From Bacteroidota bacterium (GTDB taxonomy: Bacteria; Bacteroidota; Bacteroidia; 2-12-FULL-35-15): a stretch of DNA of 64,000 bases. The first letter of the stretch is position 1. Each line of letters opens with the position of its first letter. Positions 1 through 44,317 of this stretch are shown here, piece after piece. Location: assembly GCA_023251835.1 (NCBI GenBank), contig JAHEXZ010000015.1, positions 25,568 through 89,567 on the forward strand. Direction: 5' to 3'. The translations under genes were made by a program, and so were the position numbers. The notes beneath the pieces are model-generated. The model saw only the letters and a program-made list of their open reading frames with translations. It made no database searches and had not been told where the DNA came from.

Positions 1-715
1 AACAGGTGCTGTAAAAGGAATTGGTGAAGCAATTGCAAAAAAATTAACCAGGGAAGGTTGTTTTGTTGTGGCTATAGATATTGATGAGTTAAACGGAAAA
101 AAACTTATAGCAGAATTTGGAAAAGATAAATTATGCTTTATAAAGGCTGATATTGCCCACGAAAAAGAAGTTTGTCAGTTGTTTGAAAAAGTAATTGATA
201 AATATAAGCAGGTGGATATATTGGTGAATAATGCAGGCGTTATCCGCGATAACATGATTTGGAATATGTCTATTGATGATTTTGATACAGTGATGAATAT
301 AAATTTGAAAGGTACCTGGCTAATGTGCCGTGAGGCTGCAAAACTTATGAAAAAACAAAATTCGGGGCGAATCATTAACATAGCTTCACGTGCATGGCTT
401 GGAAACAGGGGACAATCTAACTATTCAGCATCAAAAGCCGGTGTGGTTGCAATGACAAGGGTGCTTGCTCTTGAGCTTGGAAAATACAATGTTTTGGTGA
501 ATGCTATTGCTCCCGGATTAATCGATACACCTCTCACTAAAAAATTAGAAACAGATGTTTTGCAAAAACTGATTGAAGCACAACCAACAAAATCAATGGG
601 GAAACCTGATGATATAGCAAATGTTGTAGCGTTTCTGGCTAACGAAAAAACACAGTTCATCACAGGACAAACACTATATGTGGATGGAGGGAAAAGTATA
701 GGGGCTGGAATTTGA
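1..715 (+). CDS. Short-chain dehydrogenase/reductase (FabG-like), 5' end cut by window edge
   Basis: The frame starting at nt 2 reads TGAVKGIGEAIAKKL (TGxxxGIG Rossmann motif) and is continuous with ORF 68..715. NNAG, S...YSASK (YxxxK) and PGLIDT motifs are present. Confidence 0.85.
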   Translation, partial: TGAVKGIGEAIAKKLTREGCFVVAIDIDELNGKKLIAEFGKDKLCFIKADIAHEKEVCQLFEKVIDKYKQVDILVNNAGVIRDNMIWNMSIDDFDTVMNINLKGTWLMCREAAKLMKKQNSGRIINIASRAWLGNRGQSNYSASKAGVVAMTRVLALELGKYNVLVNAIAPGLIDTPLTKKLETDVLQKLIEAQPTKSMGKPDDIANVVAFLANEKTQFITGQTLYVDGGKSIGAGI

Positions 716-727
716 TAATTAATAAAA

Positions 728-805
728 TTGGAGAGTTGGAGATTTGGAGAATCCTGACCTGTCGTCAGGACAGGTTGGTGAGTTAAAGATTCTACAATCT
801 CCAAA
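728..805 (+). repeat. Three phased TTGGAGA repeats plus one inverted copy enclosing two mutually exclusive hairpins
   Basis: TTGGAGA occurs at 728, 736 and 744, with an inverted copy TCTCCAA at 798-804. The inner hairpins are tcctgac/gtcagga (752-770) and cctgtc/gacagg (758-774). Confidence 0.5.
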
Positions 806-835
806 TTAATAAATCAATAAATCAACAATTTATGT

Positions 836-3652
836 ATGAAACCAATAACCATCAAAATAAATAAAAGGGAATATCATTTTTTAGCGGATGAACATGAGAT
901 GTTGTCGAATGTTATTCGTAAAAAAGCCGGATTGACTGGAACAAAAATTGGCTGTGAGCAGGGAAGCTGTGGAGCATGCACTGTTTTAATGGATGGAAAG
1001 CCTGTTTTAAGTTGTATTACACCTGCACATCGCTGTAACAATGTAGAAGTAACAACCATTGAGGCACTTTCTAAAAATGGAGAACTTCATAAGTTACAGC
1101 AAAAATTTGTTGAAAAAGGAGCTGTTCAATGTGGGTTTTGTACGCCAGGGATGGTAATGACGGCACTTGATTTTGTCGAAAACACTCCTTCTCCCTCAGT
1201 TGAAGAAATCAAAGGTGCATTGTCAGGAAATCTTTGCCGTTGTACAGGATATAAAAAAATTGTTGAAGCTGTTGCAGAGTATGTGACGGAAGTTAAAAGT
1301 TTAAAGCCCGAAGTTGAAAGTTCTGATAATTGCCGGGAAAAAAAGTTGAAAGCGGTTGGTTTGCCAAGACCTTATATTGAAGCTGAAAAGAAAGTAAAAG
1401 GTGCTGCTGAATATGCTGATGATATTGACTTAAAGAATGTGCTGCATTGCAAGTTCCTGAGAAGTATACACCCCCATGCAAAAATTGAAGATATTGATTA
1501 TTCAGAGGCATTAAAAATTCAGGGGGTGCATTATATTGTTACCGGAAGAGAGTTGCCTGTAAAATTTGGAGTGCTTCCCATTTCACAGGATGAAACAGCT
1601 ATTGCTGTGGAAAAAGTGAGATATGTTGGTGAAATTATTGCAGCTGTGGCAGCAGATACAGAAGAAATTGCTGTTGAAGCATGTAAACGTATCAGGGTGA
1701 AATATACTCCCATTAGGGAATTTCTGACAATAGACGAATCGTTAAATGACATTGGTGCCAACGAAAAGATTCATGAATATGGAAAATTTAATAACAATAT
1801 TCATAAGAAGGCGGAACTTCGTTTTGGTGATCAGCAGCAGGGTATAAAGGAGTCTGACGTTACAAGTAAAATGTTTTTTGAATTTGAAGGCATTAATCAT
1901 GGTTTTACAGAGCCTCATGCTGCAACTGCTTATTGGGATGAGAACGGGCTAACGATAATTACAGCTACTCAGGTGCCGCATTATCTGCACCGTGCATTGG
2001 CAAAAGTAATGGAAATACCACTAAGCCGTGTACGTGTTATAAAACCTTATGTTGGTGGCGGGTTTGGCGGAAAAGGAGATCCCTTTCCGCATGAAATAAT
2101 AATCTCTCATCTTTCCAGAAAAATGGGTTGTCCGGTACGTGTCCGTTTATCACGTGAAGAGGTATTTTTAACAAATCATGGAAGGCATCCTTCCCGAATG
2201 TCTGTTGAAATGGGCATCTCAAAAGATGGTACTTTAAAAGTGCTCGATGCTGATATTGCTATTGATGGTGGTGCTTATGGCAGTTTTGGTGTGGTAACTT
2301 CCTACTATAATGGAGTATTGTTACAGGCCCCTTATAAATTAAATAATTTTGGATTCAGAACTTTTAGGGTTTATACCAATAAACCTCAATGTGGTGCAAT
2401 GCGCGGGCATGGTGCTGTTAATTCGCGTTTTGCTGTAGAATCACTCATAGACGACCTGGCATATAAAATCAACATGGATCCTTGTGAATTGAGGATAAAA
2501 AATTTTCTGGATTCAAATACGCTCACCGTGGGCCAGTATCGGATCACTTCCAATGGAAGCAGGGAATCATTACAGAAAGTGATGGAGCAGTCGGATTGGG
2601 AAAAACGTTTTAAAAAATTGGAGCACGGGCACGGACTGGGTGTTGGCTGCGGCTTTTTCATTAGCGGAAGTGCTTTACCAATTATATGGAATGAATTGCC
2701 TCAATCAGTAGTTCATCTGAAGGTAGATTTTGATGGCCGGGTAGTGATTGCTTCAGGAGCCAGTGATATAGGGCAGGGGAGTGATACAATGCTTGCTATT
2801 ATTGTTTCTGAAGTATTAGGTTTGAGTCTTGACAGGATAGCTGTACTTGCTGCGGACACACTTCTTACTCCCGTTGATTTAGGCAGCTATTCAAGCAGGG
2901 TAACATTTATGGCCGGCAATGCAGCAAAAGATGCGGCCGAAAATCTTAAAAAAGAAATTTCATCTTCAATTGAAAAGAAAAAAGGTATAGCAACAGATGA
3001 ATTGAATTTTTCTGAAAACAGAGTTTTCAGTAATAATAAAGAAGTTGATTTGAGCTGGAATGAAGCTATTGACATTTTAACAGCTAATCGTGGCGCAGTG
3101 AGTGTGAGTGGAAAATATATTTCACCCAAGCTGGGTGGTGATTTTAAAGGTGCTGGTGCCGGATTAAGTCCTTCTTATTCTTTTGGTGCTTGTGTTGCAG
3201 AGGTAAAGGTAGATACTGAAACAGGAATTGTAAAACTGTTAAACGTATGGGGAGCACATGATTGCGGAAAAGCAATTAATCCGCTTGCTGTGGAAGGACA
3301 GTTGGAAGGCTCATGGCACATGGGAATTGGACAGGCAATGTCAGAACAGATGAAATATTACAAAGGTCTTTTGTTGAACAACAATTTTTTAGATTACAAA
3401 ATCCCTACTACTCTTGATACTCCTGAAATACACACTAATATTATTGAATCCAACGACCCGGAAGGCCCTTTTGGTGCTAAGGAATGTGGTGAAGGAGCTT
3501 TGCATCCTGTTATTCCTGCAATAGCAAATGCCATTTATAACGCGGTAGGAGTGAGAATTACAAGGCTGCCAATAAGTGCCGAAGATGTTTTAGGTCTTCT
3601 ACAAATTACGAATAGAGGCGAATTACGGATGCATACAAATGCAGATTCGTGA
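836..3652 (+). CDS. Xanthine-dehydrogenase-family molybdoenzyme with fused [2Fe-2S] (gamma) and molybdopterin-binding (alpha) subunits
   Basis: 938 aa. The N-terminus has CEQGSCGACTV, QCGFCTPGM and NLCRCTGY (two 2Fe-2S motifs). These are followed by the YVGGGFGGK and GAKECGEGA...PAIANAI Mo-subunit motifs. Confidence 0.85.
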   Translation: MKPITIKINKREYHFLADEHEMLSNVIRKKAGLTGTKIGCEQGSCGACTVLMDGKPVLSCITPAHRCNNVEVTTIEALSKNGELHKLQQKFVEKGAVQCGFCTPGMVMTALDFVENTPSPSVEEIKGALSGNLCRCTGYKKIVEAVAEYVTEVKSLKPEVESSDNCREKKLKAVGLPRPYIEAEKKVKGAAEYADDIDLKNVLHCKFLRSIHPHAKIEDIDYSEALKIQGVHYIVTGRELPVKFGVLPISQDETAIAVEKVRYVGEIIAAVAADTEEIAVEACKRIRVKYTPIREFLTIDESLNDIGANEKIHEYGKFNNNIHKKAELRFGDQQQGIKESDVTSKMFFEFEGINHGFTEPHAATAYWDENGLTIITATQVPHYLHRALAKVMEIPLSRVRVIKPYVGGGFGGKGDPFPHEIIISHLSRKMGCPVRVRLSREEVFLTNHGRHPSRMSVEMGISKDGTLKVLDADIAIDGGAYGSFGVVTSYYNGVLLQAPYKLNNFGFRTFRVYTNKPQCGAMRGHGAVNSRFAVESLIDDLAYKINMDPCELRIKNFLDSNTLTVGQYRITSNGSRESLQKVMEQSDWEKRFKKLEHGHGLGVGCGFFISGSALPIIWNELPQSVVHLKVDFDGRVVIASGASDIGQGSDTMLAIIVSEVLGLSLDRIAVLAADTLLTPVDLGSYSSRVTFMAGNAAKDAAENLKKEISSSIEKKKGIATDELNFSENRVFSNNKEVDLSWNEAIDILTANRGAVSVSGKYISPKLGGDFKGAGAGLSPSYSFGACVAEVKVDTETGIVKLLNVWGAHDCGKAINPLAVEGQLEGSWHMGIGQAMSEQMKYYKGLLLNNNFLDYKIPTTLDTPEIHTNIIESNDPEGPFGAKECGEGALHPVIPAIANAIYNAVGVRITRLPISAEDVLGLLQITNRGELRMHTNADS

Positions 3653-3729
3653 TTCGTCTGATATTAGAAAAAAGTAAATGGCAGACAAAGATTCGTAATT
3701 GGTTAAAATTCGTAATTCGTGGTATATAA

Positions 3730-4662
3730 ATGATAAAAGAAAGATTATATCTCCAACCTGAAACTGCTGAAGAAGCGGTTAGAATGGCACATCAATATGA
3801 AAGGGATTTTCGTTTTATTGCTGGTGGAACGGATGTTATTGTAAATAAATTCCAGGGGAATGATTCTACATCCTGCCTCATTGATATTACCGGAATAAAT
3901 GAGTTGAAACAGGTGATAAGAAATGGGAAGCATCTGAAAATAGGAGCTGTTGTTTCTTTGGAAGAACTATACAAACATATTGAAATTAAAAAAGAATTTC
4001 CAATACTGTCGGAGGCTGCCCGTGCGGTGGCTTCACCCGTAATACGCAAAACGGCTACTATAGGAGGTAATTTACTGTGTGAGAATCGTTGTGTGTTTTA
4101 TAATCAGAGTGAATGGTGGAGGGAGGCTGCGGGATATTGTCTGAAGTGCAGTGGTGATGTTTGTATTGCTACCGGAGGGAAGAAAAATTGTTTCTCAAAG
4201 TTTGTTTCGGATATGGCTGTGGCTCTTATTGCTCTGGATGCTTGTTTAGAGGTTGTAGAATATGGGGGAAGCTATATAATCCCCTTGGAAGATATTTATA
4301 CCGGTGATGGAGTAAAACCCCGGAGATTTAACAGAACATCTCTTATTAAAGCAATACATATACCGCTTCACAATGGCCAGCGTTCTGTATTTAAAAAGTT
4401 GCGTCAGCGCGAAAGCATAGAGTTCACTTCTCTTACAACTGTAGTATCGGTAAATAAATATGGAAAAATAAAAATTGTACTTGGCGGTGTTGATCCTAAG
4501 CCAATTATTGTTGAAGGAACGTCAGAGGCTAATGAGCAGGAACTTATCAGGCAGGCTGTGAAAAAGGCCAGGATAATCGATAATGATGTGTTCTCGCGGA
4601 AATACAGAAAGGAAATGGTAACTGTATTTTTAAACAACAGCTTTAAGGAACTAAAACAATAA
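3730..4662 (+). CDS. FAD-binding (CoxM/XdhB-type) subunit with a Cys-rich insertion, HcrB-like
   Basis: Contains FIAGGTDV and ATIGGNL FAD-subunit motifs. An insertion of about 38 aa with six Cys sits between GGNL and SDMAVAL. The gene is 78 nt downstream of the Mo subunit gene. Confidence 0.85.
   Translation: MIKERLYLQPETAEEAVRMAHQYERDFRFIAGGTDVIVNKFQGNDSTSCLIDITGINELKQVIRNGKHLKIGAVVSLEELYKHIEIKKEFPILSEAARAVASPVIRKTATIGGNLLCENRCVFYNQSEWWREAAGYCLKCSGDVCIATGGKKNCFSKFVSDMAVALIALDACLEVVEYGGSYIIPLEDIYTGDGVKPRRFNRTSLIKAIHIPLHNGQRSVFKKLRQRESIEFTSLTTVVSVNKYGKIKIVLGGVDPKPIIVEGTSEANEQELIRQAVKKARIIDNDVFSRKYRKEMVTVFLNNSFKELKQ
4078..4191 (+). other. Cys-rich insertion loop (C117,C121,C137,C140,C145,C154), putative extra [4Fe-4S] site
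   Basis: Sequence is LLCENRCVFYNQSEWWREAAGYCLKCSGDVCIATGGKKNC. The paralogous FAD subunit at 40394..41284 lacks it (GGNLCTASPSGDIACAL). Confidence 0.6.
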
Positions 4663-4685
4663 ATAAATACCAGGCTAATTTTTTT

Positions 4686-5870
4686 ATGCTAATGAAACAG
4701 AAAGGGAAAACAAATCTTATCATAACTATAGGGTTAGCACTTTCCCTTGTCATTTTTTTTATAGATATACATACTCCTCTTGGAATTGCCGATGGCATCT
4801 GTTATATAGCCGTTATGCTCCTTTCTATGTGGTCTGATGATAAAAGGCTGACTATAATGGCTGCTGCAACAGGTACTATTCTGATAATAGCCGGCTATTT
4901 TTTTTCTCCACCAGCACCTCTCATTGCAGAACCTTATATTGCCATTACTAATAGGTTACTTTCTATAGTTGTTGTTATTATATGTGCTTTGGTGATAATC
5001 AAATACAAAAAAGTTGAACAGTTAACTATGGAACAACAGTCGGAATTAGAGGAATTAAATAAAAACTTAAAGGCTACAAATTTGCAGTTAGAAGAACGTG
5101 TCAGAGAACGAACTTCAGTTCTTGAGGGGGCACTTGTAAAACTCAAAAAATCAGAAGAAGAATTACAGAAATTATTAGCGCACGAAAAAGAGTTAAATGA
5201 ACTAAAAACACGTTTTGTTTCAACGGCTTCACATGAGTTCAGAACTCCACTTACAACAATATTGTCTTCCCTTTCTCTTATTTCAAGGTATGGGGAACAA
5301 AACGATAAGGAAAAACAAAACAAACACATTGATCGGATTAAATCTGCTGTTTCCCAACTTACAGAGATTCTAAATGATATGCTTTCTATCAGCAAGCTCG
5401 AAGAAGGAAGAATAATAGTATCGTATGAAAAATTTCATGTAAACACTTTGGTATCCGGAGTTGTCAGGGAAATGCAACTTATAACAAAACCAAACCAAAA
5501 AATTGAATACGATCACTTTGGTGAGGAGGAGGTAGTGCTGGATAAAAAAATATTGCAACATATTTTGTTAAACCTTATCTCTAATTCTATTAAATTTTCC
5601 GATGAAGGCAGCGTTGTTCAGCTTGTTACTGAAGTGAACAATTTTTGTTTTAAACTTAAGGTAAAAGATTCAGGAGTTGGAATACCAGAGGAAGACCAAA
5701 AACATTTATTTAAACGATTTTTCAGGGGCAACAACGTTTCAGCTATACAGGGAACGGGGTTAGGACTTAACATAGTAGCAAAATATGTTGAAACAATGAA
5801 TGGGACGGTTGATTTTACCAGCAAATTGGGCGTGGGAACTACTTTTAATATTGAATTTCAGGTAGCTTAA
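4686..5870 (+). CDS. Membrane sensor histidine kinase with no adjacent response regulator
   Basis: The N-terminus is hydrophobic and is followed by a coiled coil. It has the H-box SHEFRTPL, the N-box LLNLISNSIKF, and G-boxes DSGVGI and GTGLGLNIV. Confidence 0.85.
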   Translation: MLMKQKGKTNLIITIGLALSLVIFFIDIHTPLGIADGICYIAVMLLSMWSDDKRLTIMAAATGTILIIAGYFFSPPAPLIAEPYIAITNRLLSIVVVIICALVIIKYKKVEQLTMEQQSELEELNKNLKATNLQLEERVRERTSVLEGALVKLKKSEEELQKLLAHEKELNELKTRFVSTASHEFRTPLTTILSSLSLISRYGEQNDKEKQNKHIDRIKSAVSQLTEILNDMLSISKLEEGRIIVSYEKFHVNTLVSGVVREMQLITKPNQKIEYDHFGEEEVVLDKKILQHILLNLISNSIKFSDEGSVVQLVTEVNNFCFKLKVKDSGVGIPEEDQKHLFKRFFRGNNVSAIQGTGLGLNIVAKYVETMNGTVDFTSKLGVGTTFNIEFQVA

Positions 5871-5906
5871 ATTTATTTAAGATTGGTTTATACAAAAAAA
5901 TAGAAG

Positions 5907-8900
5907 ATGGCAAACAAAGTAAAAATCATGGATGGCAATGAAGCTGCAGCTTATATTGCATATAAAACAAATGAAGTTTGTGCAATTTATCCGATTACAC
6001 CATCTTCGGCTATGGGTGAATTTTGCGATGAATGGTCGGCTGCCGGAATTAAAAATGTATTTGGCCAGGTTCCAAGAGTGATGGAGATGCAAAGTGAAGG
6101 TGGTGCTGCAGGAGCAGTACATGGTGCCTTACAAGGCGGTACTTTAGCTTCTACATTTACTTGTTCACAAGGATTATTGCTGATGATTCCCAATATGTAC
6201 AAAATTGCGGGTGAACTTACACCTGTCGTTTTCCATATTGCAGCACGTACTTTGGCAACACATGCACTATCCATTTTTGGAGATCATTCCGATGTTATGT
6301 CTGTTCGCCAAACCGGCTGGGCAATGTTATTTAGCCGTAATTCACAGGAAGCAATGGATATGGCTCTGATAGCGCAAGCCGCTACGTTGAAAACCCAGAT
6401 TCCGTTTTTGAATATTTTTGATGGTTTCAGAACTTCACATGAATTAACTAAAGTGGAAATAATACCAGATGAAGTTATTCTGGAAATGATAGACGAAGAT
6501 GAGCTACTTGCATTCAGAAAACGTGCTATGTCAACGGAGAATCCCTCTATCAGGGGGACTGCTCAAAATCCGGATGTGTTTTTTCAAAGTCGTGAAGCCG
6601 CTAATAAATATTATGCTGCTGCTCCCGGTATTGTTTCGGAAACAATGGAGAAGTTTGGGCAACTCACCGGCAGAAATTATAAACTTTACGAATATTATGG
6701 ACATGCAAACCCTGACAGAATAGTTATTATCATGGGATCAGGGGCAGGAGCTGTGAATGAAACTGCTAATTATTTGAATGAACAGGGAGAAGCTGTTGGA
6801 TACTTGTATATACGTTTGTTTCGGCCTGTAGATGTTAAAGAATTGATTCAAAATATTCCCGGATCAGTAAAAAATATTTGTGTGCTCGACCGTTGCAAAG
6901 AACCTGGAGCTATTGGAGATCCTTTGTATATGGATGTTATAAATAGTATAGCTGAAACATGGCAGGGTGAAAAACCTAAAGTTATTGCAGGACGCTATGG
7001 ACTTGCTTCTAAAGAGTTTACTCCTGCAATGGTAAAATCTATTTTTGATGAATTAAAAAAAGGTATCCCTAAAAATCATTTTACAATTGGGATCAATGAT
7101 GATGTAACACATACCAGTTTGGATTATGACAAAACATTCTCATTGGAGAAACAACATTTATTCAGGGGTTTGTTTTACGGATTGGGTGCAGATGGTACTG
7201 TAAGCGCAAATAAAAATTCTATAAAAATCATCGGGGAAACCACTACTAATTATGTGCAAGGCTATTTTGTGTATGACTCAAAAAAATCAGGTTCATTAAC
7301 TGTTTCACATTTACGCTTTGGAAAAAATCCTATTCAATCAACCTATTTAATTAACTCTGCCAATTTTATTGCCTGCCATCAGTTTAACTATATCAATAAA
7401 TATGACATTCTGAAAGATGCTGAAAAGGGTGCTACTTTTTTACTGAATACTCCATATACTATGGAGCAGGTATGGAATAAAATGCCTCAATATGTTCAGG
7501 AACAAATTATTTCCAAAGAACTAAAATTTTATGTTGTAAATGCCTCTAAAGTGGCACGTGAAACAGGTATGGGGTCGCGTATAAATACTATTTTACAGAC
7601 TTGTTTTTTTGCTGTTTCAGGAATACTTACAAGAGAAGATGCGATACAAAAAATAAAAGATGCTACCCAAAAAACATACGCTGCAAAAGGTGAAAAAGTA
7701 GTTCTTAAAAATTTTGAGGCAATTGATAAAACAATAGAAAATCTTCAGCAGATTGATTACTCAAAGTACACCGTAGGAACTGTCAAAACAGAAAAACTTG
7801 TTTCGGATAATGCCCCTGATTTTGTAAAAAATGTACTGGAAAAAATACTTTCTTTTGAAGGAGACAGTTTGCCTGTAAGTGCTTTTCCTGTGGATGGAAC
7901 ATACCCTGTTGGAACTACTCAGTATGAAAAAAGAAATATTGCTGATAAAGTACCTGTTTGGGATGAAGCGCTGTGTTCACAATGTGGTAAATGTTTTCTG
8001 ATTTGCCCGCATGCAGCCATACGCTGTAAAGTATATAACAAAGAGCATCTTGCCGGTACCCCGGAAACATTCAAACATGCGGCTCCTGTTGGTAAAGAAT
8101 TTGAAAAAGAAAAAGAAGCCTATACATTACAGGTTTCTGTAGAAGATTGTACTGGCTGTAATTTATGTGTTGAATATTGCCCAATGACAAGCAAAACGGA
8201 TGTTAAGCATAAGGCAATAAATATGCAGGAGCAACTGCCTTTGAAAAAAACTGAAATAAAAAATTGGGAATTCTTTTTGTCGATTCCCGAAATTGACCGT
8301 TCTCGCGTGAATAAGAATACAGTAAAGGGTACACAGTTGTTACAACCTTTATTTGAATTCTCAGGTGCATGTTCCGGTTGTGGCGAAACACCTTATGTAA
8401 AGCTCTTATCACAACTCTATGGCGACAGGATGGTGGTTGCAAATGCAACAGGATGCTCATCCATTTACGGTGGCAACCTGCCAACAACACCATGGACAGT
8501 CAATAAGGAAGGATACGGACCGGCATGGGCAAATTCATTGTTTGAAGACAATGCTGAATTTGGACTTGGAATAAAAATGGCGTATGATAAAAAAACAGAG
8601 ATTGCAAAAGCAATACTGGAAAACAATAAAGATAGTATTGGTGAAAGTTTTGTAAATGAACTATTAAATGCCGACCAAAGTTCAGAAGCAGGCATTCGTA
8701 AACAACACATGGCCATCAAAGAACTTCGTAATCGTATTACATCAATAAATAGTTTTGAGATGAAGCAATTGAACCTTGTTGCTGACCATCTTTTAAAAAA
8801 ATCACACTGGATTATTGGTGGCGATGGATGGGCTTATGACATTGGTTTTGGCGGTTTAGACCATGTGCTTTCGACAGGGGAGAATGTAAACATTATTGTA

Positions 8901-9434
8901 CTTGATACAGAAGTGTATTCCAATACGGGAGGACAAAAATCAAAGTCGACACCTATTGGTGCAAGTGCAAAATTTTCAGTAAACGGAAAAGAGAATTCGA
9001 AAAAGGATTTGGCATTACAGGCCATAGCACACGGTTCGGCATACGTTGCACAGATAGCAATGGGTGCAAATGATGCACATGCAATTAAAACTATACAGGA
9101 GGCAGAAGCCTTTCCGGGAACATCTATTGTAATAGCCTACAGCCATTGTATTGCTCATGGTTATGATATGGCAAATGGTGCGAATCAGCAGGAAAATGCT
9201 GTAAAATCAGGATATTGGCCGTTGTTCCGTTACAATCCGTTAAAGCCAAAAGGCGAACGTTTCTCATTGGATAGCAAAGAGTCGGCCTTGCCATTGAAAG
9301 ATTTTCTATACAATGAAACCCGCTTCAACACTTTGGTTCGTCAAAATGCGGAACACGCAGCTGATTTACTTTCAAGAGCGGAGAGCGGAGTAATCAGCCG
9401 TTGGGAACGTTTGCTGGCATTGAAGGCATTATAG
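5907..9434 (+). CDS. nifJ: Pyruvate:ferredoxin (flavodoxin) oxidoreductase, single-polypeptide type
   Basis: 1175 aa. It has two ferredoxin motifs (CSQCGKCFLICPHAAI and CTGCNLCVEYCP) and the TPP motif GGDGWAYDIGFGGLDH. The length and domain order are typical of NifJ/PFOR. Confidence 0.93.
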   Translation: MANKVKIMDGNEAAAYIAYKTNEVCAIYPITPSSAMGEFCDEWSAAGIKNVFGQVPRVMEMQSEGGAAGAVHGALQGGTLASTFTCSQGLLLMIPNMYKIAGELTPVVFHIAARTLATHALSIFGDHSDVMSVRQTGWAMLFSRNSQEAMDMALIAQAATLKTQIPFLNIFDGFRTSHELTKVEIIPDEVILEMIDEDELLAFRKRAMSTENPSIRGTAQNPDVFFQSREAANKYYAAAPGIVSETMEKFGQLTGRNYKLYEYYGHANPDRIVIIMGSGAGAVNETANYLNEQGEAVGYLYIRLFRPVDVKELIQNIPGSVKNICVLDRCKEPGAIGDPLYMDVINSIAETWQGEKPKVIAGRYGLASKEFTPAMVKSIFDELKKGIPKNHFTIGINDDVTHTSLDYDKTFSLEKQHLFRGLFYGLGADGTVSANKNSIKIIGETTTNYVQGYFVYDSKKSGSLTVSHLRFGKNPIQSTYLINSANFIACHQFNYINKYDILKDAEKGATFLLNTPYTMEQVWNKMPQYVQEQIISKELKFYVVNASKVARETGMGSRINTILQTCFFAVSGILTREDAIQKIKDATQKTYAAKGEKVVLKNFEAIDKTIENLQQIDYSKYTVGTVKTEKLVSDNAPDFVKNVLEKILSFEGDSLPVSAFPVDGTYPVGTTQYEKRNIADKVPVWDEALCSQCGKCFLICPHAAIRCKVYNKEHLAGTPETFKHAAPVGKEFEKEKEAYTLQVSVEDCTGCNLCVEYCPMTSKTDVKHKAINMQEQLPLKKTEIKNWEFFLSIPEIDRSRVNKNTVKGTQLLQPLFEFSGACSGCGETPYVKLLSQLYGDRMVVANATGCSSIYGGNLPTTPWTVNKEGYGPAWANSLFEDNAEFGLGIKMAYDKKTEIAKAILENNKDSIGESFVNELLNADQSSEAGIRKQHMAIKELRNRITSINSFEMKQLNLVADHLLKKSHWIIGGDGWAYDIGFGGLDHVLSTGENVNIIVLDTEVYSNTGGQKSKSTPIGASAKFSVNGKENSKKDLALQAIAHGSAYVAQIAMGANDAHAIKTIQEAEAFPGTSIVIAYSHCIAHGYDMANGANQQENAVKSGYWPLFRYNPLKPKGERFSLDSKESALPLKDFLYNETRFNTLVRQNAEHAADLLSRAESGVISRWERLLALKAL

Positions 9435-10383
9435 AAGTAGCAGGGGCGTAATGTTTCCCCTGCCACCAGTTTTTCTCAATGAGTTTTTTATCAATCCTGT
9501 CTACCACTTCAAAGTTTTTTATCCCTCCCCAGTAAGGTGCTATTAGCAAGTGTTTTGGCGATTCGCTGGTAAAACGTTCAATGATAATATCGGGACGTAA
9601 GAGGGTGATAAATTCAGCAATCAAATCAACATATTGTTCTAAGGTTGATAAATTAAACATTTCAGGAGTTTCCCTATATTGATGAGCCATTACAGTATGT
9701 TTTACAATCTGTAGCTGATGAAGTTTAAGTGTGTTAATAGGTAACCTGGATAGTTCTTTTGCATGATTCAACAGTTCTTCTTTGCTTTCTCCCGGTAAAT
9801 TTAAAATCATGTGTGCTCCAAGATGCAGCCCTTTGTTGTCTGCCATTTTATAGGCGGCAATTGTTTCTTCAAAAGTATGACACCTGTTAATGAGTTTTAA
9901 GGTTCTGTTTAAGGTGCTTTCCACACCAAATTCAAGCGACACAAAATGGGTTTTGGCAATTTCTGATAGCATATCAATTATTTCCGGATTGATACAGTCC
10001 GGCCTGGTGCCAATTACAAGACCTGTTATATCCGGGTAACGGAGCGCCTCCATGTACATATTCCTTAATAGGTCTACTGAAGCATAGGTGTTGGTATATG
10101 ATTGGAAATAAGCAAAATATTTTTGTGCGGTATATTTTTTTGAAAAAAATAAAATACCCTCTTCTAATTGCTGAGAAATAGTTTTTATTGGTTTACAGTA
10201 ACCGGGGCTGAATGTATTATTGTTACAATAGGTGCATCCACCAATACCTTTTGTTCCGTCTCTGTTAGGGCAGGTAAAACCTGTATTTAAAGAAATCTTC
10301 TGCACACGCTGATTGAAAGTTTTTTTTATAAAAGAACTGTAATCATTGTAGCGTTTGTTGTTTTGAAAAAGCATTGTTTTCAT
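9394..10383 (-). CDS. Radical SAM protein, YhcC/TIGR01212-like
   Basis: Contains FTCPNRDGTKGIGGCTYCN (an atypical radical-SAM Cys cluster characteristic of the YhcC family). 329 aa. Confidence 0.75.
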   Translation of the reverse strand: MKTMLFQNNKRYNDYSSFIKKTFNQRVQKISLNTGFTCPNRDGTKGIGGCTYCNNNTFSPGYCKPIKTISQQLEEGILFFSKKYTAQKYFAYFQSYTNTYASVDLLRNMYMEALRYPDITGLVIGTRPDCINPEIIDMLSEIAKTHFVSLEFGVESTLNRTLKLINRCHTFEETIAAYKMADNKGLHLGAHMILNLPGESKEELLNHAKELSRLPINTLKLHQLQIVKHTVMAHQYRETPEMFNLSTLEQYVDLIAEFITLLRPDIIIERFTSESPKHLLIAPYWGGIKNFEVVDRIDKKLIEKNWWQGKHYAPATSIMPSMPANVPNG

Positions 10384-10526
10384 TTAGCGTAATTAGTCAT
10401 ATTATGCAAATTGATTTTGTGATTAATCTTGTTTCCTGTCTTCTTTTGGCGGAAGACTACTCTTTGGATGCTAAAGATTTATAAATGTGGATCATTGTAA
10501 TTTATGAATGTTTTGGGGGGTATTAA

Positions 10527-12203
10527 TTATTGCTCCACAATTATTTTCTGTATTTGAACGGATTGTTCTGTTTGTATTGTAACAAAATATATCCCCGAAG
10601 GTAAATTGTGCACATCTATTTTTATTTGTTCTCCTTTTTTAAAAATACCTGATGCGATAGTTTCTCCAAAAATATTTATTACAGAAAATCTTGCTGTTTT
10701 ATTTTGAACATCAGTTGCAAGAAAAATAAAATCAGTGGCTGGGTTGGGATAAATCTGCACGTTTGATTCTAAGTCCGTGTTATTGACCGAGTTGGTGTTG
10801 TATTCTATTTCCAAAAATTTAGGCGAATGCTTTGCTTGCAGCGGAATGATCTGGCTTGGAGTTAAATTAGTTACATTTTCGTTGATGTCCGTTAGTGTAA
10901 CGGATATTGGCATAGTGCTTAACGTGATCGTATAATTTAATGTCTGTGCGTCAAAGATGGAGGGTGTTAAGGGTTCGCTTAATGGGTTGAAAAAAATGTA
11001 CAATTCTTTATTATTGCTGCCCGAAATGAATTTTTCAACCCAGATAGTATTAAAAGAATTAAGTGTACCGCTTACGTGTGATGAGTAATTGTACATGTTT
11101 AATTTTGAGAGAAGCAAAGCAGTTGCTTTCATCGATCTGCTTGCCGAACCGTCCGGTTTTAAAGAACCCCATTCCCTTTCTCCTACGGGGCCTCTGGGAA
11201 TAACTTTCAACGGTGAAATACCTGATAGAACAGGAGTCCCATTATATGTCAATGTTTTTTTTATTGTTAATTCCTGAATCATATAAGCAGCGTCTATTTT
11301 ATCAATGGTATCAGAAATTGCTGGCAGGTTATTGCTCGGGGGAGTATGTTCCGTATCAAACATTGGTTTTGACTGCCAGCCAACAGAATCAAGTTTCTGA
11401 CGTATTGATAAAATACCCGGAATGCCAGCATATCTATTGAATATGGGTGCTGTTATCGGGGAATAGCGTGTACTATATTCGTGAAATGCCCAGTAATCAA
11501 ACTTGGCGTGATTGGTTGTGTCTAAAAAATATTCCACCATCTGCATCATCACTTGCATTTGTGGATATCCTTGGCTATTTGGTGGCACATCAAAAAAATA
11601 TTCAAAACCGTGAGTGCCAACCATAATATCAGGATATTTAATTTTTACACTGTCGTAAATATTATTTTGGGTTGTAAGCAACTGGCTTAATGTCAAAGTG
11701 CCAAGAAGCAACTCTGTGGATGGCTCGTTGAACAATTCTATGTATTTTATATTGGCAGCAATTTTATAACGATCTAGAAACCAACCAACAAAACTCACAA
11801 AATCAGTAATATCCTGATTGGTATAAGTATTATTTGCCCCTGTGGGTATTGCCGAAAACATTGGTCTCATGCTCCATCCATTCAGAGTAAATTTATTGAC
11901 AAATGTATCCAAATCATAACTGTCAGAGTTAAGGAAAACGGTAGAGGAAAAATTTCCATTTATGTCTTTATTAGTTCTTATCCGGAATTTTACATTTTTT
12001 TCAAGTTTTAAAGTATCATTAATAGCAGATATTTGTTTTGACCCATCCGTATCAAGAATAGTCATGTATGCTTCTGTACCCCATCGGATGCTGTCGGCAT
12101 CAAAAGAATAGCTAGTTGATTGGGCGAAGCAACCAGCTATGCTCGGAAAGAAATAGGTCCCGATAAAAATCGAGATGAGCAAAAGTTTGTCGTTGCGGTT
12201 CAT
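10527..12203 (-). CDS. Secreted clan GH-A-like glycoside hydrolase with T9SS C-terminal sorting domain
   Basis: Has a signal peptide, an IELFNEPS acid/base-like motif and a DTEH nucleophile-like motif. The C-terminus reads YPNPATDFIFL...GIYFVTIQ...IIVEQ, a T9SS CTD pattern. Confidence 0.55.
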   Translation of the reverse strand: MNRNDKLLLISIFIGTYFFPSIAGCFAQSTSYSFDADSIRWGTEAYMTILDTDGSKQISAINDTLKLEKNVKFRIRTNKDINGNFSSTVFLNSDSYDLDTFVNKFTLNGWSMRPMFSAIPTGANNTYTNQDITDFVSFVGWFLDRYKIAANIKYIELFNEPSTELLLGTLTLSQLLTTQNNIYDSVKIKYPDIMVGTHGFEYFFDVPPNSQGYPQMQVMMQMVEYFLDTTNHAKFDYWAFHEYSTRYSPITAPIFNRYAGIPGILSIRQKLDSVGWQSKPMFDTEHTPPSNNLPAISDTIDKIDAAYMIQELTIKKTLTYNGTPVLSGISPLKVIPRGPVGEREWGSLKPDGSASRSMKATALLLSKLNMYNYSSHVSGTLNSFNTIWVEKFISGSNNKELYIFFNPLSEPLTPSIFDAQTLNYTITLSTMPISVTLTDINENVTNLTPSQIIPLQAKHSPKFLEIEYNTNSVNNTDLESNVQIYPNPATDFIFLATDVQNKTARFSVINIFGETIASGIFKKGEQIKIDVHNLPSGIYFVTIQTEQSVQIQKIIVEQ

Positions 12204-20872: not shown

Positions 20873-21676
20873 CTAAATCGCATCCGCAAAAATCTTTGAT
20901 AATTTTTTATCAGCTTTTCCTGCAACTTCGATTATTTCCTCAATGCTTATGGGTTTTAGATTATCGGGGTCGCACTCATCTGTTATAACTGACACTGCCG
21001 CACATTGCAGTCCCAAATGGTTTGCAGCAATCACTTCGGGCACAGTGCTCATTCCTACCATATCTACCCCTATATTTTTCAGCATCCGATATTCAGCAGG
21101 GGTTTCCAACATGGGGCCCGCCACAGCTGCATAGACACCTTTTTTCAAAATCACTTTTTCAGATAAACCACATTTTTTCAATTGCTGTTGAAGTTCCAAT
21201 GAATAGGGCTGACTCATGTCGGGGAATCCCGGACCGAATGAATCTTCGTTTTTTCCGATAAGAGGATTCCCTGGAAGAAGATTGATATGGTCGTCAATCA
21301 AAACCAAATCTCCCTTTTTAAAATCTAAATTGATTCCACCTGCCGCGTTGGAAAGAAAAAGATTTTTCACGCCAAGCATTTTCATAACACGAATGGGAAA
21401 AACGATTTGCTGAAAAGAATATCCTTCGTAGAAATGAAATCTTCCCTGCATCGATATCACTTTCTTTTTTCCTATCTCACCATAAATTAAATTCCCCTTA
21501 TGAAATTCCACAGTTGAAACTGGGAAGTGGGGGATTTCAGAATAAGGAATAGTTGAAATAATTTTTAAATGAGTGATGAATTGGTTAAGCCCTGTGCCGA
21601 GAACAATTCCATAATCAGCATTCCCCATCCCCTTGCCTCTGAGAAAATTTTCTGTTTCTTTGATTTTTTCGTACAT
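20873..21676 (-). CDS. Purine nucleoside phosphorylase, PunA/MTAP (trimeric PNP) fold
   Basis: Contains GIVLGTGL, GRFHFYEGY, SNAAGGIN, VAGPMLETPAEYRML and GMSTVPEV. 267 aa. Confidence 0.85.
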   Translation of the reverse strand: MYEKIKETENFLRGKGMGNADYGIVLGTGLNQFITHLKIISTIPYSEIPHFPVSTVEFHKGNLIYGEIGKKKVISMQGRFHFYEGYSFQQIVFPIRVMKMLGVKNLFLSNAAGGINLDFKKGDLVLIDDHINLLPGNPLIGKNEDSFGPGFPDMSQPYSLELQQQLKKCGLSEKVILKKGVYAAVAGPMLETPAEYRMLKNIGVDMVGMSTVPEVIAANHLGLQCAAVSVITDECDPDNLKPISIEEIIEVAGKADKKLSKIFADAI

Positions 21677-21685
21677 ACAATTCTC

Positions 21686-22375
21686 TTATTGAATGTGATT
21701 CTGATAATACCTTACAATTTCCTCCTGTGAAAAACCGAGATAGTAAAGAATATTTATCACTGTATAATTCCATTGCAGGCGGAGCATCCCGTTCTTACGG
21801 TATCTTCTTGCTGATGTAACAACATAATCCGGTATAACGGAAAATTTTCCCTGTTTTGTAATTCTTCTCACAATATCATTATCTTCCATTATTTCCAGAT
21901 TAATGTCGAAGCCGTTTATTTTTCCAAACAAATCACGCTTCGCAAATAATGACTGGTCTCCGAAGCGACATAGATTATTATTGAACCTTGTGAACCAACT
22001 GAAAAATCTGAAGAAAGGATGTTTGCTGTCAAATTTCATTCTGAAACAACCGGCATCATTACCGTCTTTTATGGATTGAAGAATCCGCTCATCAAATTTT
22101 TTGGGTGGAATAGTATCCGCATGAAGAAAATAAAAAATGTCTCCCGTAGCAAGATTTGCTCCTGTATTCATTTGAAGTGCCCTGCCTCTTCGCTCTGTTA
22201 GAAAAACTTTTGCACCAGCCCGTTTCGCAATTTCAGCGGTGTTATCTCCGCTACAAGCATCCACAACAATAATTTCCTGAATATTTCTCTCGGAAGAATT
22301 ATTTTTCAAGGTATGAACAAGTTTTTCAATTCTCTCAGATTCGTGGCAAGTCGGTATGATAATGCTGATTTTCAT
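21686..22375 (-). CDS. Family 2 glycosyltransferase, TIGR04283-like (transferase 2, rSAM/selenodomain-associated)
   Basis: Contains ISIIIPTCHE, GRALQMNTGA, FLHADT, FGDQSLF, IMEDNDI and SARRYRKNG. Confidence 0.75.
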   Translation of the reverse strand: MKISIIIPTCHESERIEKLVHTLKNNSSERNIQEIIVVDACSGDNTAEIAKRAGAKVFLTERRGRALQMNTGANLATGDIFYFLHADTIPPKKFDERILQSIKDGNDAGCFRMKFDSKHPFFRFFSWFTRFNNNLCRFGDQSLFAKRDLFGKINGFDINLEIMEDNDIVRRITKQGKFSVIPDYVVTSARRYRKNGMLRLQWNYTVINILYYLGFSQEEIVRYYQNHIQ

Positions 22376-22989
22376 TTTTTTATTTGAATTTTTCCTAATT
22401 CACCGATGTTATCTTCTGTATCAATATCAGATAATGCAGGGAGCAAGTGATATTTCAGTTGTAATTTTTTAAGAATGTTAATACTGTCAAGCAAAACATT
22501 TTCCGTGCTCCAGGGAATATTTTCAAATAATTCTTTGTGGAGCGATTTCATTCCAAGAAGATAATATCCTCCGTCTATCGCTGGACCAATTACCACATCA
22601 TTATTATCGAGTGTTTCAAATGCTTTTTGAAGCATTTCTGTTTTCAATTCATGGCAATCTGTACCTATTATGAGAACCTTTTCATATTTATTTTGAAATT
22701 CAAAAGCAAAAGCATTTTTCATTCGCTCTCCTAAATCGCTTCCGTCTTGTACATATTTTTGATAAAAATCCTTGTCCCACATATCATTTTTGTCAATAAA
22801 ATCAGAATAGAAAATTGCTTTGTCGCAATTTTTTAATTGTGCGACAATATTTCCGGTATAGTGAAGAAGCATCTTATAAATTTGAAGTGCCTTCTCGTTT
22901 CCAATGCTTTTTGCAAGACGGGTTTTAACTTTCCCTTTGACAGGGTTTTTCATAAAAACCATAAGCAAGTATTTGTTTTTTTCTTTCAT
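22372..22989 (-). CDS. DUF2064 / TIGR04282-like (transferase 1, rSAM/selenodomain-associated; CofC/MobA-like nucleotidyltransferase fold)
   Basis: Contains VFMKNPVKGKVKTRLA, QDGSDLGERM, IIGTDCHEL, GPAIDGGYYLLGM, IPWSTENV and LSDIDTEDN. Confidence 0.75.
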   Translation of the reverse strand: MKEKNKYLLMVFMKNPVKGKVKTRLAKSIGNEKALQIYKMLLHYTGNIVAQLKNCDKAIFYSDFIDKNDMWDKDFYQKYVQDGSDLGERMKNAFAFEFQNKYEKVLIIGTDCHELKTEMLQKAFETLDNNDVVIGPAIDGGYYLLGMKSLHKELFENIPWSTENVLLDSINILKKLQLKYHLLPALSDIDTEDNIGELGKIQIKK

Positions 22990-22992
22990 CTT

Positions 22993-24039
22993 TTATTTTG
23001 TAATTGCTCCCTGACAACTTGAACCTGCCCCGGCAGTACATCCGAAACAATGCTGATTAACGATAATATTTCTTTCAGAAAGATTTTTGGTATTGAATTC
23101 GCTGATATGCTGAGGCGCATTTTTCTGAACTTTTAGTTCAAGCATCTGGTTAAAATCACAGTCGTATAAATATCCATCCCAACTGACTGAAATCGTATTT
23201 CTGCACATCACGCCTTGTGCGGCTGTTGCATTAAAAGCATTCACAAGCGTCTCCATATATTTTTCGTATTTCCCGAGCATGAGCAAGTAATCTAAAAACC
23301 TGCTGATAGGAAGATTGTTTATTGTATAAAGGTTATTAAAAGCGATTCCAAATTTTTCTCCAAGTTCATGTTTATAATCTGAGTGAAGTTTTTCCTGCGA
23401 ACCGGCTAACGAAGCTCCGATAGGATTAAAAACAAGATGTAACTCCAATCCTGTTTCTTCTTTTCCATAGCCAATTTTATTCAACATTTTTAACGATTCA
23501 ATCGAATGATTAAAAACTCCTTCTCCTCTTTGCTTATCTGTATTTTCTTTTGTGTAACATGGAAGAGAAGAAATCACAATTACTTTATGCTTTTTAAAAA
23601 ATTCAGGATACATTTTGAATTTTTTATTTGAAACAAGAATTGTGAGATTGCTTCGCACTATAATTTTTTTCCCGAGTTTGAAAATTTCCTCAACAAACCA
23701 TTGAAATCTTGGATTCATTTCAGGTGCGCCACCAGTTAAATCAATAGTATTCACCGAAGATTTCTTAATCGCTTCTAAACACAACTGCATTGTTTCGCGT
23801 GTCATAATTTCTTTTCGGTCAGGTCCTGCATCCACATGGCAATGCGCGCAGGTTTGATTGCACATTTTTCCAAGATTGATTTGCAGAATATCAAGAGAAA
23901 TTGGTTTTAAAGGATAAAGACCGATGTCTTTCAATTTTTCCGAAAAGGCAGGGACTAAAGCTTTGCTATCCTCAAGAATTGAAATTTGGTTCTCTGCAAC
24001 TGAGATTTTGTTGCCGCTTGATTTTAATGACTTTAACAT
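22993..24039 (-). CDS. arsS: Radical SAM/Cys-rich-domain protein, ArsS-like (TIGR04167 family)
   Basis: Contains CNQTCAHCHVDAGP (CxxxCxxC) and a C-terminal HCFGCTAGAGSSCQG Cys cluster. The track ORF starts at a TTG (24066), but the first ATG is at 24039. Confidence 0.75.
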   Translation of the reverse strand: MLKSLKSSGNKISVAENQISILEDSKALVPAFSEKLKDIGLYPLKPISLDILQINLGKMCNQTCAHCHVDAGPDRKEIMTRETMQLCLEAIKKSSVNTIDLTGGAPEMNPRFQWFVEEIFKLGKKIIVRSNLTILVSNKKFKMYPEFFKKHKVIVISSLPCYTKENTDKQRGEGVFNHSIESLKMLNKIGYGKEETGLELHLVFNPIGASLAGSQEKLHSDYKHELGEKFGIAFNNLYTINNLPISRFLDYLLMLGKYEKYMETLVNAFNATAAQGVMCRNTISVSWDGYLYDCDFNQMLELKVQKNAPQHISEFNTKNLSERNIIVNQHCFGCTAGAGSSCQGAITK

Positions 24040-24130
24040 AGTGTTGTTTTTATTTTCATAGTACAAAGTAATCTATTAGCAATGTATAGAAATGTCATTT
24101 TACGCGACAAACAAACTTTCGGATAGTTGT

Positions 24131-39399: not shown

Positions 39400-40404
39400 C
39401 TATTCCAGGCATAAACATATTTTTTCTACTGCTGCTGCATCTCCCACACTAATCCGCAATGACTTATCCTGACCAAAAACTTTCAGGTTACAAACTATCA
39501 ATCCGTTAGTTGTAAATTTACTAAATAGTTCTTCTTTTTTATTTTCCGAATCAAAAAATACATACAAAAAATTTCCCTGTGGTGAAATTACATTTAACCC
39601 TGCCTGTTTTAATTTCTCATATAAAATATTTCGGTATTTAGTATTTTTCTTTATACATGATGAAATAAATCTTTTGTCTTTCAGTGATGCAAGTGCTGCA
39701 TCTTCTGAAAGCGAATTGAAGAAAAACGGAATACGGTTTTGTTTTAAGACGTTTGCCATATCTCCTCTCATTATTCCATAACCGATTCTTAAGCCGGCTA
39801 ATCCATATATTTTGGAAAATGTGCGAAGGATAATCAGGTTGGGATATTTTTTCTGAAGAGAAAATGAATCAGGAAAGGATTTATCAGTTACGTATTCACA
39901 ATAGGCTTCATCAATAACAACAATTATTTTCTCAGATATATTTTTCAATAATTGTTCAAGCTGTGAATGGGTAATGATTGTTCCTGTGGGATTATTGGGA
40001 TTGGCAATGAAAATAACTTTGGTTTTTTTAGTGATGAGTTGGAAAATATTTTCTACATCACAAATAAAATCTGTTTGTTTGGCAAAACTATATTTTCTCC
40101 GGTGAGCAGCAGCGAGTTGTTCGTAAGCAACAAAACTCCGCTCAAAAAGTATAATTTCTTCATCAGGCTCAACAAATGTCTGGATAATTCCATCAATTAA
40201 CCTCACTGAGCCTGCACCTACAACAATATCTGTTGCATCAACGTTAAATTTTTCTGCAAGCTTTTCTTCCAGGCGGACAGGCAGTGAAGGATACAGATGT
40301 ACATTTATTAAGCCTTTTTTAATTGTTTTCTGAACTTCTGGAGAACAGCCATGGCTATTTTCATTTGCGTTCAGACGTATTATTGGTTGTTTTTTATTCT
40401 TCAT
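39400..40404 (-). CDS. Class II PLP aminotransferase (HisC/aromatic aminotransferase-like)
   Basis: Contains LNANENSHG, ANPNNPTG, DEAYCEY and TFSKIYGLAGLRIGY (PLP Lys). I prefer the ATG at 40404 (MKNKKQPIIRLNANEN). The longer track ORF overlaps the upstream gene. Confidence 0.8.
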   Translation of the reverse strand: MKNKKQPIIRLNANENSHGCSPEVQKTIKKGLINVHLYPSLPVRLEEKLAEKFNVDATDIVVGAGSVRLIDGIIQTFVEPDEEIILFERSFVAYEQLAAAHRRKYSFAKQTDFICDVENIFQLITKKTKVIFIANPNNPTGTIITHSQLEQLLKNISEKIIVVIDEAYCEYVTDKSFPDSFSLQKKYPNLIILRTFSKIYGLAGLRIGYGIMRGDMANVLKQNRIPFFFNSLSEDAALASLKDKRFISSCIKKNTKYRNILYEKLKQAGLNVISPQGNFLYVFFDSENKKEELFSKFTTNGLIVCNLKVFGQDKSLRISVGDAAAVEKICLCLE

Positions 40405-41284: not shown

Positions 41285-41294
41285 TTTATTTCAA

Positions 41295-43604: not shown

Positions 43605-43616
43605 AAATTACAGTTA

Positions 43617-44306: not shown

Positions 44307-44317
44307 AATTTTTTGTA

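Follow-up and report, generated by a model that had tools for sequence, protein, structure and literature searches.

The window analysed here is a 64,000-nucleotide stretch of contig JAHEXZ010000015.1 from a Bacteroidota bacterium (assembly GCA_023251835.1), in which two adjacent genes at positions 836–4662 encode a molybdoenzyme belonging to the xanthine oxidase (XO) family. We confirmed two open reading frames (ORFs) on the forward strand, encoding proteins of 938 aa (836–3652) and 310 aa (3730–4662). The Pfam domains of the longer protein are arranged in the order Fer2/Fer2_2 (residues 7–146), a/b hammerhead (189–292), MoCoBD_1 (319–557), and MoCoBD_2 (581–863); on the basis of this domain set and order, together with its PDB and NCBIfam matches, the protein was assigned as the fused small Fe–S and large Mo subunits of an XO-family enzyme, a γ–α fusion resembling HcrC and HcrA of 4-hydroxybenzoyl-CoA reductase (hereafter 4-HBCR). 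The 310-aa protein is an HcrB-like FAD subunit, as indicated by its Pfam domain (FAD_binding_5) and by the best matches in both PDB and Foldseek searches (PDB chain 1rm6_B). 4-HBCR is the classical XO-family enzyme that works reductively, and HcrCAB of Thauera aromatica (PDB entry IDs, 1RM6 and 1SB3) is equivalent to HbaBCD of Rhodopseudomonas palustris.

The N-terminal module of the fused protein (residues 1–150; positions 836–1285) is predicted to carry two [2Fe-2S] clusters and matches HcrC (1rm6_C; 5e-42, 147 bits, over residues 6–147); its two sets of four cysteines (Cys40/45/48/60 and Cys99/102/134/136) are all invariant in 186 homologues. The catalytic module for the Mo cofactor, which in this type of enzyme is molybdopterin cytosine dinucleotide (MCD), comprises residues 173–923 (positions 1352–3604) and can be aligned at the residue level to residues 10–763 of HcrA. 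The HcrC alignment stops at residue 147 and the HcrA alignment begins at residue 173, and the segment between them (residues 148–175, EYVTEVKSLKPEVESSDNCREKKLKAVG; positions 1277–1360) is regarded as the γ–α linker. The catalytic module contains TQVP (Gln379), GGGFGGK (407–413), CGAMRGHG (519–526), and GAKECGE (Glu883 and Glu886), all of them motifs general to the XO family, and Arg523–Gly526, Glu883, and Glu886 are invariant in the same 186 homologues. In subunit architecture the enzyme departs from 4-HBCR, since γ and α form a single 938-aa ORF instead of two of three separate subunits; automated annotation by the Joint Genome Institute already labels such proteins as 4-HBCR subunits. The fusion, which an earlier note made from the DNA sequence had pointed out, is widely conserved: proteins of ~930 aa are found in all of the 120 best database matches and in 72 of 82 related loci.

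The cysteine loop of the FAD subunit

In the FAD subunit, the FAD_binding_5 domain occupies 207 residues over 165 profile positions, and an insertion of ~40 aa is therefore indicated. It follows the ATIGGNL sequence (residues 109–115) and corresponds to a loop of residues 116–157 (positions 4075–4200), a putative [4Fe-4S] site as judged from its alignment with HcrB and the conservation of its cysteines. The second FAD subunit encoded in the window (positions 40394–41284, reverse strand) is exactly 38 residues shorter at the loop in a MAFFT alignment, in agreement with the length of about 38 aa given in the earlier note. Eight cysteines occur in the FAD subunit (Cys49, Cys117, Cys121, Cys137, Cys140, Cys145, Cys154, and Cys172), and the six that had been placed in the loop (Cys117 to Cys154) are exact in position.

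A phmmer search against all PDB chains retrieved HcrB of T. aromatica as the best match (1rm6_B; 4e-42, 147 bits), and this structure was also the top match in a Foldseek search with an AlphaFold2 (AF2) model of the FAD subunit. The loop alignment is free of gaps and sets Cys121, Cys137, Cys145, and Cys154 opposite Cys122, Cys138, Cys146, and Cys155 of HcrB, as had been proposed from the cysteine spacing with a one-residue offset. The two loops have the motif FYNQSEWWR in common and are identical at 20 of 42 positions, compared with 32% identity over the whole protein. The four aligned cysteines are invariant across 202 homologues, and Cys140 and Cys117 are conserved in 199 and 195 of them; among the control cysteines outside the loop, Cys49 is present in 175 and Cys172 is variable. 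Facing Cys117 and Cys140, HcrB carries Gln and Tyr, so that these two cysteines are specific to the clade. The homology of the insertion to the HcrB loop and the retention of its cysteines in orthologues are the two points on which the earlier note had made its reading depend, and the alignments indicate that the resemblance is one of descent and not of chance. We take the four cysteines of HcrB to be the [4Fe-4S] ligands described in the 2004 structure paper of the Thauera enzyme. In a later article, that paper is cited for the binding of a [4Fe-4S] cluster by the loop of the β-subunit (PMC11760930).

The FAD subunits of two oxidative enzymes, PaoB (5g5g_B; 4e-25, 92 bits) and that of the Methylobacillus aldehyde oxidase (5y6q_B; 1e-20), also align across the loop, with gaps and with counterparts for Cys121, Cys137, and Cys154 only, and PaoABC, an oxidative aldehyde oxidoreductase, is characterised by a four-Cys [4Fe-4S] motif in its FAD subunit (PMC13404670). 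These similarities raise the possibility of a PaoABC-type hydroxylase or aldehyde oxidoreductase, whose [4Fe-4S] cluster would export electrons to ferredoxin or another acceptor, but we consider it scarcely credible for the present enzyme. The PaoB loop differs in length and can be aligned only with three gaps, so that its cysteines coincide with Cys121, Cys137, and Cys154, while a His faces Cys145 and the fourth Cys of the motif lies elsewhere. Similarity to E. coli PaoABC (PDB entry ID, 5G5G) is much weaker for all modules (PaoB, 92 bits; PaoC, 177 bits, against 580 bits for HcrA; PaoA, 96 bits), and NCBIfam returned no PaoB model among its matches. PaoABC is, moreover, exported and composed of separate subunits, whereas the fused protein has no N-terminal export leader of ~60 aa: its 2Fe-2S fold starts at residues 2–6, and the match to PaoA begins at PaoA residue 61. 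The genomic context, consisting of benzoyl-CoA pathway genes and a pyruvate:ferredoxin oxidoreductase (PFOR), is also at variance with such an enzyme. A PaoABC-type identity was rejected on the gapped loop alignment, the low scores, and the missing leader, and the loop is designated here as HcrB type because of its gap-free match to HcrB and the conservation of its cysteines, as opposed to the gapped match to PaoB.

A similar motif in an oxidative enzyme also means that the loop alone is no proof of reductive direction. The earlier note had regarded the extra cluster as the very feature that lets an XO-family enzyme run in reverse; this was overstated, because the four-Cys motif occurs in oxidative PaoABC (PMC13404670) and because the urolithin C dehydroxylase Ucdh, considered below, is reductive without such a loop.

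Affiliation with 4-hydroxybenzoyl-CoA reductase

Each of the three cofactor modules has its best match, in sequence and in fold, in the corresponding chain of HcrCAB, as the comparison with HcrA, HcrB, and HcrC proposed in the earlier note had anticipated. For the 938-aa protein, the best PDB match was HcrA (1rm6_A; 9e-173, 580 bits; sequence identity, 40.3% over 756 aa), followed by the fused MOP of Desulfovibrio gigas (349 bits), which aligned over both modules (residues 6–922). In NCBIfam, the top models for the three modules are the 4-HBCR equivalogs TIGR03194, TIGR03195, and TIGR03193.

For phylogenetic placement, relatives were collected by a search of 1.84 billion cluster representatives, which gave both fused and unfused proteins, and a neighbour-joining tree of the Mo module was calculated with 100 bootstraps. 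The query is joined first by the fused protein P0241 (100%) and then by the unfused proteins P0243, P0244, and P0248 (93–96%), within a clade that holds Thauera HcrA and its representative (72–81%). It thus groups with HcrA and not with ordinary hydroxylases, the placement on which the earlier note had left its proposal to be checked, and PDB matches, NCBIfam models, and tree agree with the description given there of a 4-HBCR-like XO-family molybdoenzyme. Three other fused proteins, from Ignavibacteriales, Kiritimatiellia, and Acidobacteriota metagenome-assembled genomes (MAGs) (P0242, P0245, and P0246; 932–951 aa; 43–48% identical to the query), belong to the same HcrA clade but lie on other branches; NCBI names two of them (P0245 and P0246) 4-hydroxybenzoyl-CoA reductase subunit alpha. 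Because these fused members are on separate branches, and because the nearest neighbours of the query beyond its own group (P0243, P0244, and P0248) are unfused, the γ–α fusion probably arose more than once, as far as the tree can tell.

A large group of ~920-aa fusions resembling MOP and XdhD stands apart from the query clade. D. gigas MOP and the E. coli XdhD-type proteins share with the query the order of two [2Fe-2S] clusters followed by the Mo module. MOP is not known to have a FAD subunit, and neither MOP nor an XdhD-type enzyme is known to occur with an HcrB-type loop. A MOP/XdhD-type identity was rejected, in view of the different clade and the presence of an HcrB-like partner, in spite of the same order of fusion.

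Compared with HcrCAB, the present enzyme has the same cofactor modules, the same ~40-aa insertion with four cysteines at matching positions, the same tree clade, and, as described below, the same genomic company of a Bcr-type benzoyl-CoA reductase pathway. It differs in the joining of γ and α through a linker of ~25 aa, in the two additional conserved loop cysteines (Cys117 and Cys140), in its hosts, which are uncultured Bacteroidota, and in its typical neighbours, namely a short-chain dehydrogenase/reductase (SDR), a hemerythrin or a kinase, and PFOR. There is also no adjoining ligase gene here, whereas in R. palustris a gene for a 4-hydroxybenzoate-CoA ligase, hbaA, lies near those for the enzyme.

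Gene neighbourhood and the proposed reaction

Position 1 of the window falls inside a gene cluster, and the genes upstream of it were read from the gene table of the source contig. On the strand opposite to the enzyme, these are genes for an acyltransferase, a 473-aa BcrAD_BadFG protein, a protein of the type IX secretion system (T9SS), and two HGD-D proteins of 434 aa and 387 aa, among which the BcrAD_BadFG and HGD-D proteins appear, from the scores of the corresponding proteins in relatives, to be BcrA-like, BcrB-like, and BcrC-like. On the enzyme strand of the source contig, the genes for a MocA-like cytidylyltransferase, an SDR, the fused protein, the FAD subunit, a histidine kinase, and PFOR follow one another. 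The SDR is FabG-like and has its 3′ part at positions 1–715 (Pfam adh_short_C2, 1e-57; tblastn homology over nt 2–712), with the gene start upstream of the window; on the source contig it has a full length of 254 aa and directly precedes the fused gene. It passes no NCBIfam equivalog; among its closest specific matches is cis-4-hydroxycyclohexanecarboxylate dehydrogenase (191 bits; cut-off, 350). The 121-nt gap between the SDR and fused genes contains a short inverted repeat (CCTGAC...GTCAGG; positions 745–775, forward strand), which a terminator scan did not flag. Over positions 1–10500, the promoter and terminator scan gave counts that did not differ from those in shuffled sequence, the scan being one that does not cover Bacteroidota promoters. 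On the 3′ side, a membrane sensor histidine kinase (4686–5870, forward strand; Pfam HisKA and HATPase_c) follows the FAD subunit gene after 24 nt, and is itself followed by PFOR of the NifJ type (5907–9434, forward strand; NCBIfam TIGR02176, 1730 bits; cut-off, 911).

A scan of one genome per species returned 219 related stretches, from which 80 loci were kept; the best related locus is 71% identical, and the genome of the window itself is not among the loci returned. The kept loci are all in MAGs, nearly all of them Bacteroidota (the labels Ignavibacteria and Bifidobacteriaceae occur once each), and originate from lakes, groundwater, peat, and wastewater. Neighbours were counted in 83 loci including a near-duplicate, or in 82 after its removal, and the ranges below reflect the two counts. 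The fused gene is present in 72–74 loci, and an SDR lies directly upstream of the enzyme, with XdhC or MocA on its other side, in 53–56. MocA, which serves MCD synthesis, occurs in 38–41 loci, and XdhC, which serves Mo-cofactor maturation, in 35–38. BcrB/C are found in 17–22 loci and Had/Oah/Dch in 13–20, and PFOR adjoins the enzyme in 15 loci. Among the 37 loci that are fully flanked (at least 9 kb on both sides), 13 have PFOR next to the enzyme, 24 have bcr or dch/had/oah genes no more than 10 kb away, and only six have neither bcr, lower-pathway, nor PFOR genes. In 35 of 82 loci (e.g., positions 10930–11466 of locus L001), the gene directly 3′ of that for the FAD subunit encodes a hemerythrin of ~175 aa, whose place is taken by a histidine kinase, as in the window, in only three; either protein may serve in O2 or redox sensing, or in protection of an O2-sensitive enzyme.

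Several of the pathway proteins in the relatives exceed the NCBIfam cut-offs for the classical enzymes (BcrB, 675 bits against 487; BcrC, 434 against 421; Had, 459 against 339; Oah, 593 against 464). BcrD lies almost exactly at its threshold (312.8 against 312.85 bits), whereas BcrA (437 against 578) and Dch (215 against 293) fall short of it, each of these two models being still the best match for its protein. Genes for a Thauera-type ATP-dependent benzoyl-CoA reductase and for Dch/Had/Oah form a cluster with those of the enzyme in many MAGs of uncultured Bacteroidota (L001, L005, L007, L015, L019, and others). Locus L001, from a Bacteroidia MAG, has the same arrangement and encodes a second BcrAD protein as well as an AMP-binding ligase; in L002, from a Sphingobacteriales MAG, a Zn-dependent alcohol dehydrogenase, two enoyl-CoA hydratases, and a 3-hydroxyacyl-CoA dehydrogenase fusion are encoded upstream of the enzyme. 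With the bcr genes upstream on the source contig and Bcr, Had, Oah, and Dch in the relatives, the classical role of the enzyme, the formation of benzoyl-CoA, is the one indicated.

Taking the observed domain set, loop homology, cysteine conservation, tree position, and gene context together, we consider the enzyme to be a reductive dehydroxylase of the 4-HBCR type, in fused form, that belongs to a benzoyl-CoA pathway of Bacteroidota, with a probability of roughly two in three. Its substrate would most likely be 4-hydroxybenzoyl-CoA or a very similar phenolic acyl-CoA; this assignment, as well as the binding of the cluster, the direction of electron flow, and the electron donor, we infer by analogy with the Thauera enzyme (PMC12771579). 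In the proposed reaction, reduced ferredoxin, regenerated by the adjacent PFOR, would deliver electrons to the [4Fe-4S] cluster at Cys121, Cys137, Cys145, and Cys154, from which they would travel via FAD and the two [2Fe-2S] clusters in the N-terminal module to Mo–MCD, where the para-hydroxyl group on 4-hydroxybenzoyl-CoA (or a very similar phenolic acyl-CoA) would be lost reductively to give benzoyl-CoA. The Bcr-type, ATP-dependent reductase of the genes just upstream could then dearomatise benzoyl-CoA, which would be degraded further by Dch, Had, Oah, and β-oxidation. PFOR is the probable source of the low-potential electrons, its adjacency being only suggestive.

A number of points weigh against this assignment. 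All three modules score below the NCBIfam cut-offs for 4-HBCR (805 against 995, 230 against 405, and 175 against 258 bits), and the identities to HcrA and HcrB are only 40% and 32%. The AF2 model, built from a 35-sequence alignment, has an overall predicted local distance difference test (pLDDT) score of 77, but the loop (residues 118–157) is below 50 and its geometry is unreliable; as the case of PaoABC illustrates, a [4Fe-4S] cluster in the FAD subunit would in any event not by itself imply reductive catalysis. No BcrD adjoins the BcrA-like gene on the source contig, and neither XdhC nor a 4-hydroxybenzoate-CoA ligase is encoded in the window. In the related loci, an AMP-binding ligase is present within 10 kb in only two of 82 (one full-length ORF, and one partial in L001), and a small ferredoxin-type ORF (CxxCxxCxxxCP) in only seven of 82. 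Finally, one lineage of the enzyme, that of P0164 (L084–L086; GCA_013112825.1 and GCA_016861005.1), has no bcr genes within 10 kb. It possesses a compact operon, devoid of SDR, for a major facilitator superfamily (MFS) transporter, MocA, XdhC, the fused enzyme, the FAD subunit, hemerythrin, and PFOR, and is very widespread (152 blocks of the collection).

Because of the sub-cut-off profile scores, the 40% identity to HcrA, the two extra conserved cysteines, and the near absence of adjoining ligases, there is room for a related phenolic acyl-CoA as the substrate. The same ferredoxin-driven dehydroxylation might act on another hydroxy- or dihydroxybenzoyl-CoA, or on an aryl-CoA derived from tyrosine, for whose formation 2-oxoacid:ferredoxin oxidoreductases or CoA-transferases would replace a ligase. 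A gene of the tryptophanase/tyrosine phenol-lyase family (Beta_elim_lyase) adjoins the enzyme in 11–12 loci (e.g., positions 12245–13630 of L001 and 10954–12324 of L002, both on the reverse strand) and hints at a link to aromatic amino-acid breakdown; its product passes the NCBIfam model of the tryptophanase subfamily (656 bits; cut-off, 285) but fails those of TnaA (547 against 750) and tyrosine phenol-lyase (495 against 721). Genes for an aminotransferase and for an indolepyruvate:ferredoxin oxidoreductase (IOR) are also present in the window, and these enzymes would permit the formation of arylacetyl-CoA without a ligase. On the other hand, the conserved neighbours are precisely those enzymes by which benzoyl-CoA is consumed, no enzymes converting arylacetyl-CoA into aroyl-CoA were recognised, and the query lies within the 4-HBCR clade of the tree, so that we regard a substrate of this kind as rather unlikely. 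A bolder form of the idea is that the Bacteroidota clade represents a functionally distinct, six-Cys fused dehydroxylase, wired to PFOR and hemerythrin and acting on a phenolic acyl-CoA other than, or besides, 4-hydroxybenzoyl-CoA, which would provide entry to an undescribed anaerobic catabolism of aromatic compounds, possibly derived from tyrosine, widespread in uncultured Bacteroidota of freshwater, groundwater, and wastewater; we put it forward tentatively, and doubt that it will hold.

The earlier note had gone further and taken the lack of a nearby CoA ligase as a sign of an uncharacterised reductive substrate; read in this way, the enzyme would be comparable to Ucdh and act on a substrate unrelated to CoA esters. 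The rarity of ligases near the enzyme is borne out by the related loci, whereas the conclusion drawn from it is at odds with the bcr context. XO-family reductive dehydroxylases with non-CoA substrates do exist: according to a 2025 paper, Ucdh (UcdCFO) of Enterocloster is the only XO-family reductive dehydroxylase described besides 4-HBCR, and like 4-HBCR it removes a hydroxyl group para to an electron-withdrawing carbonyl (PMC12771579). The P0164 lineage without bcr genes within 10 kb would also fit a reaction of this type. Ucdh is, however, only ~33% identical to 4-HBCR, depends on NADH, and lacks the [4Fe-4S] loop, and both the contig of the present enzyme and 24 of the 37 fully flanked relatives place it beside benzoyl-CoA pathway genes. 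A substrate unrelated to CoA esters is accordingly judged highly improbable, and the assignment as a fused 4-HBCR-type enzyme supplying benzoyl-CoA is retained.

Occurrence in Bacteroidota and other genes of the window

The kind of enzyme is already known, and fused forms are already present in databases. As judged from the sequences, the departures from the characterised enzyme are the stable fusion in a large separate clade, the six conserved loop cysteines, and the neighbourhood of SDR, hemerythrin, and PFOR. In a survey published in 2024, neither bcr nor bam genes were found in 37 representative genomes of the Fibrobacteres–Chlorobi–Bacteroidetes (FCB) superphylum (PMC10936416), and our full-text literature search retrieved no description of a fused HcrCA, or of a 4-HBCR or a Bcr pathway from Bacteroidota. 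Fused versions with the HcrB-type Cys loop in complete form occur commonly among uncultured Bacteroidota, usually beside a Bcr-type reductase and Dch/Had/Oah, and look like part of a full Bcr-type benzoyl-CoA pathway there. Set against the negative survey, the presence of this cluster suggests that the part played by Bacteroidota in breaking down phenolic compounds anaerobically is under-recognised for lakes, groundwater, peat, and wastewater. For expression and study of this O2-sensitive type of enzyme, the single-chain γ–α form could also prove convenient as a construct. As to the host, proteins with the T9SS Por_Secre_tail domain are encoded in the window, and the close homologues of the enzyme are without exception from Bacteroidota MAGs, which accords with the Bacteroidota-type genome recognised in the earlier note.

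The window contains a second XO-family enzyme, whose genes are split over a cluster at positions 39400–51746 on the reverse strand. In addition to the FAD subunit without a Cys loop (40394–41284), it consists of a Mo subunit (41295–43604), for which the NCBIfam models of 4-HBCR-alpha and XdhA are nearly tied (546 and 531 bits) and both far under cut-off, and a 2Fe-2S subunit (47089–47619). The cluster also holds a 229-aa ORF of unassigned family, an amine-oxidase-like gene, and a CrtC/lipocalin-like gene, and is flanked by genes for a HisC-family aminotransferase, IOR beta, and a 1149-aa fusion of IOR alpha with a GltD-like NAD(P)/FAD and Fer4 module. The region could encode a route from aromatic amino acids to arylacetyl-CoA.

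Another group of genes on the reverse strand (20873–24066), for a PNP_UDP_1 phosphorylase, a family-2 glycosyltransferase, a DUF2064/CofC-like transferase, and a radical S-adenosylmethionine protein with DUF3641, is apparently unrelated to the enzyme. The end of the window is occupied by an acyl-CoA block (52805–63996, reverse strand) with genes for a family III CoA-transferase, a methylmalonyl-CoA-mutase-like protein, a 693-aa enoyl-CoA hydratase-like protein, a thiolase, an acyl-CoA dehydrogenase, and hydantoinase B/A, the last being caprolactamase-like with scores under cut-off. The family III CoA-transferase could provide for the activation of acids without a ligase.

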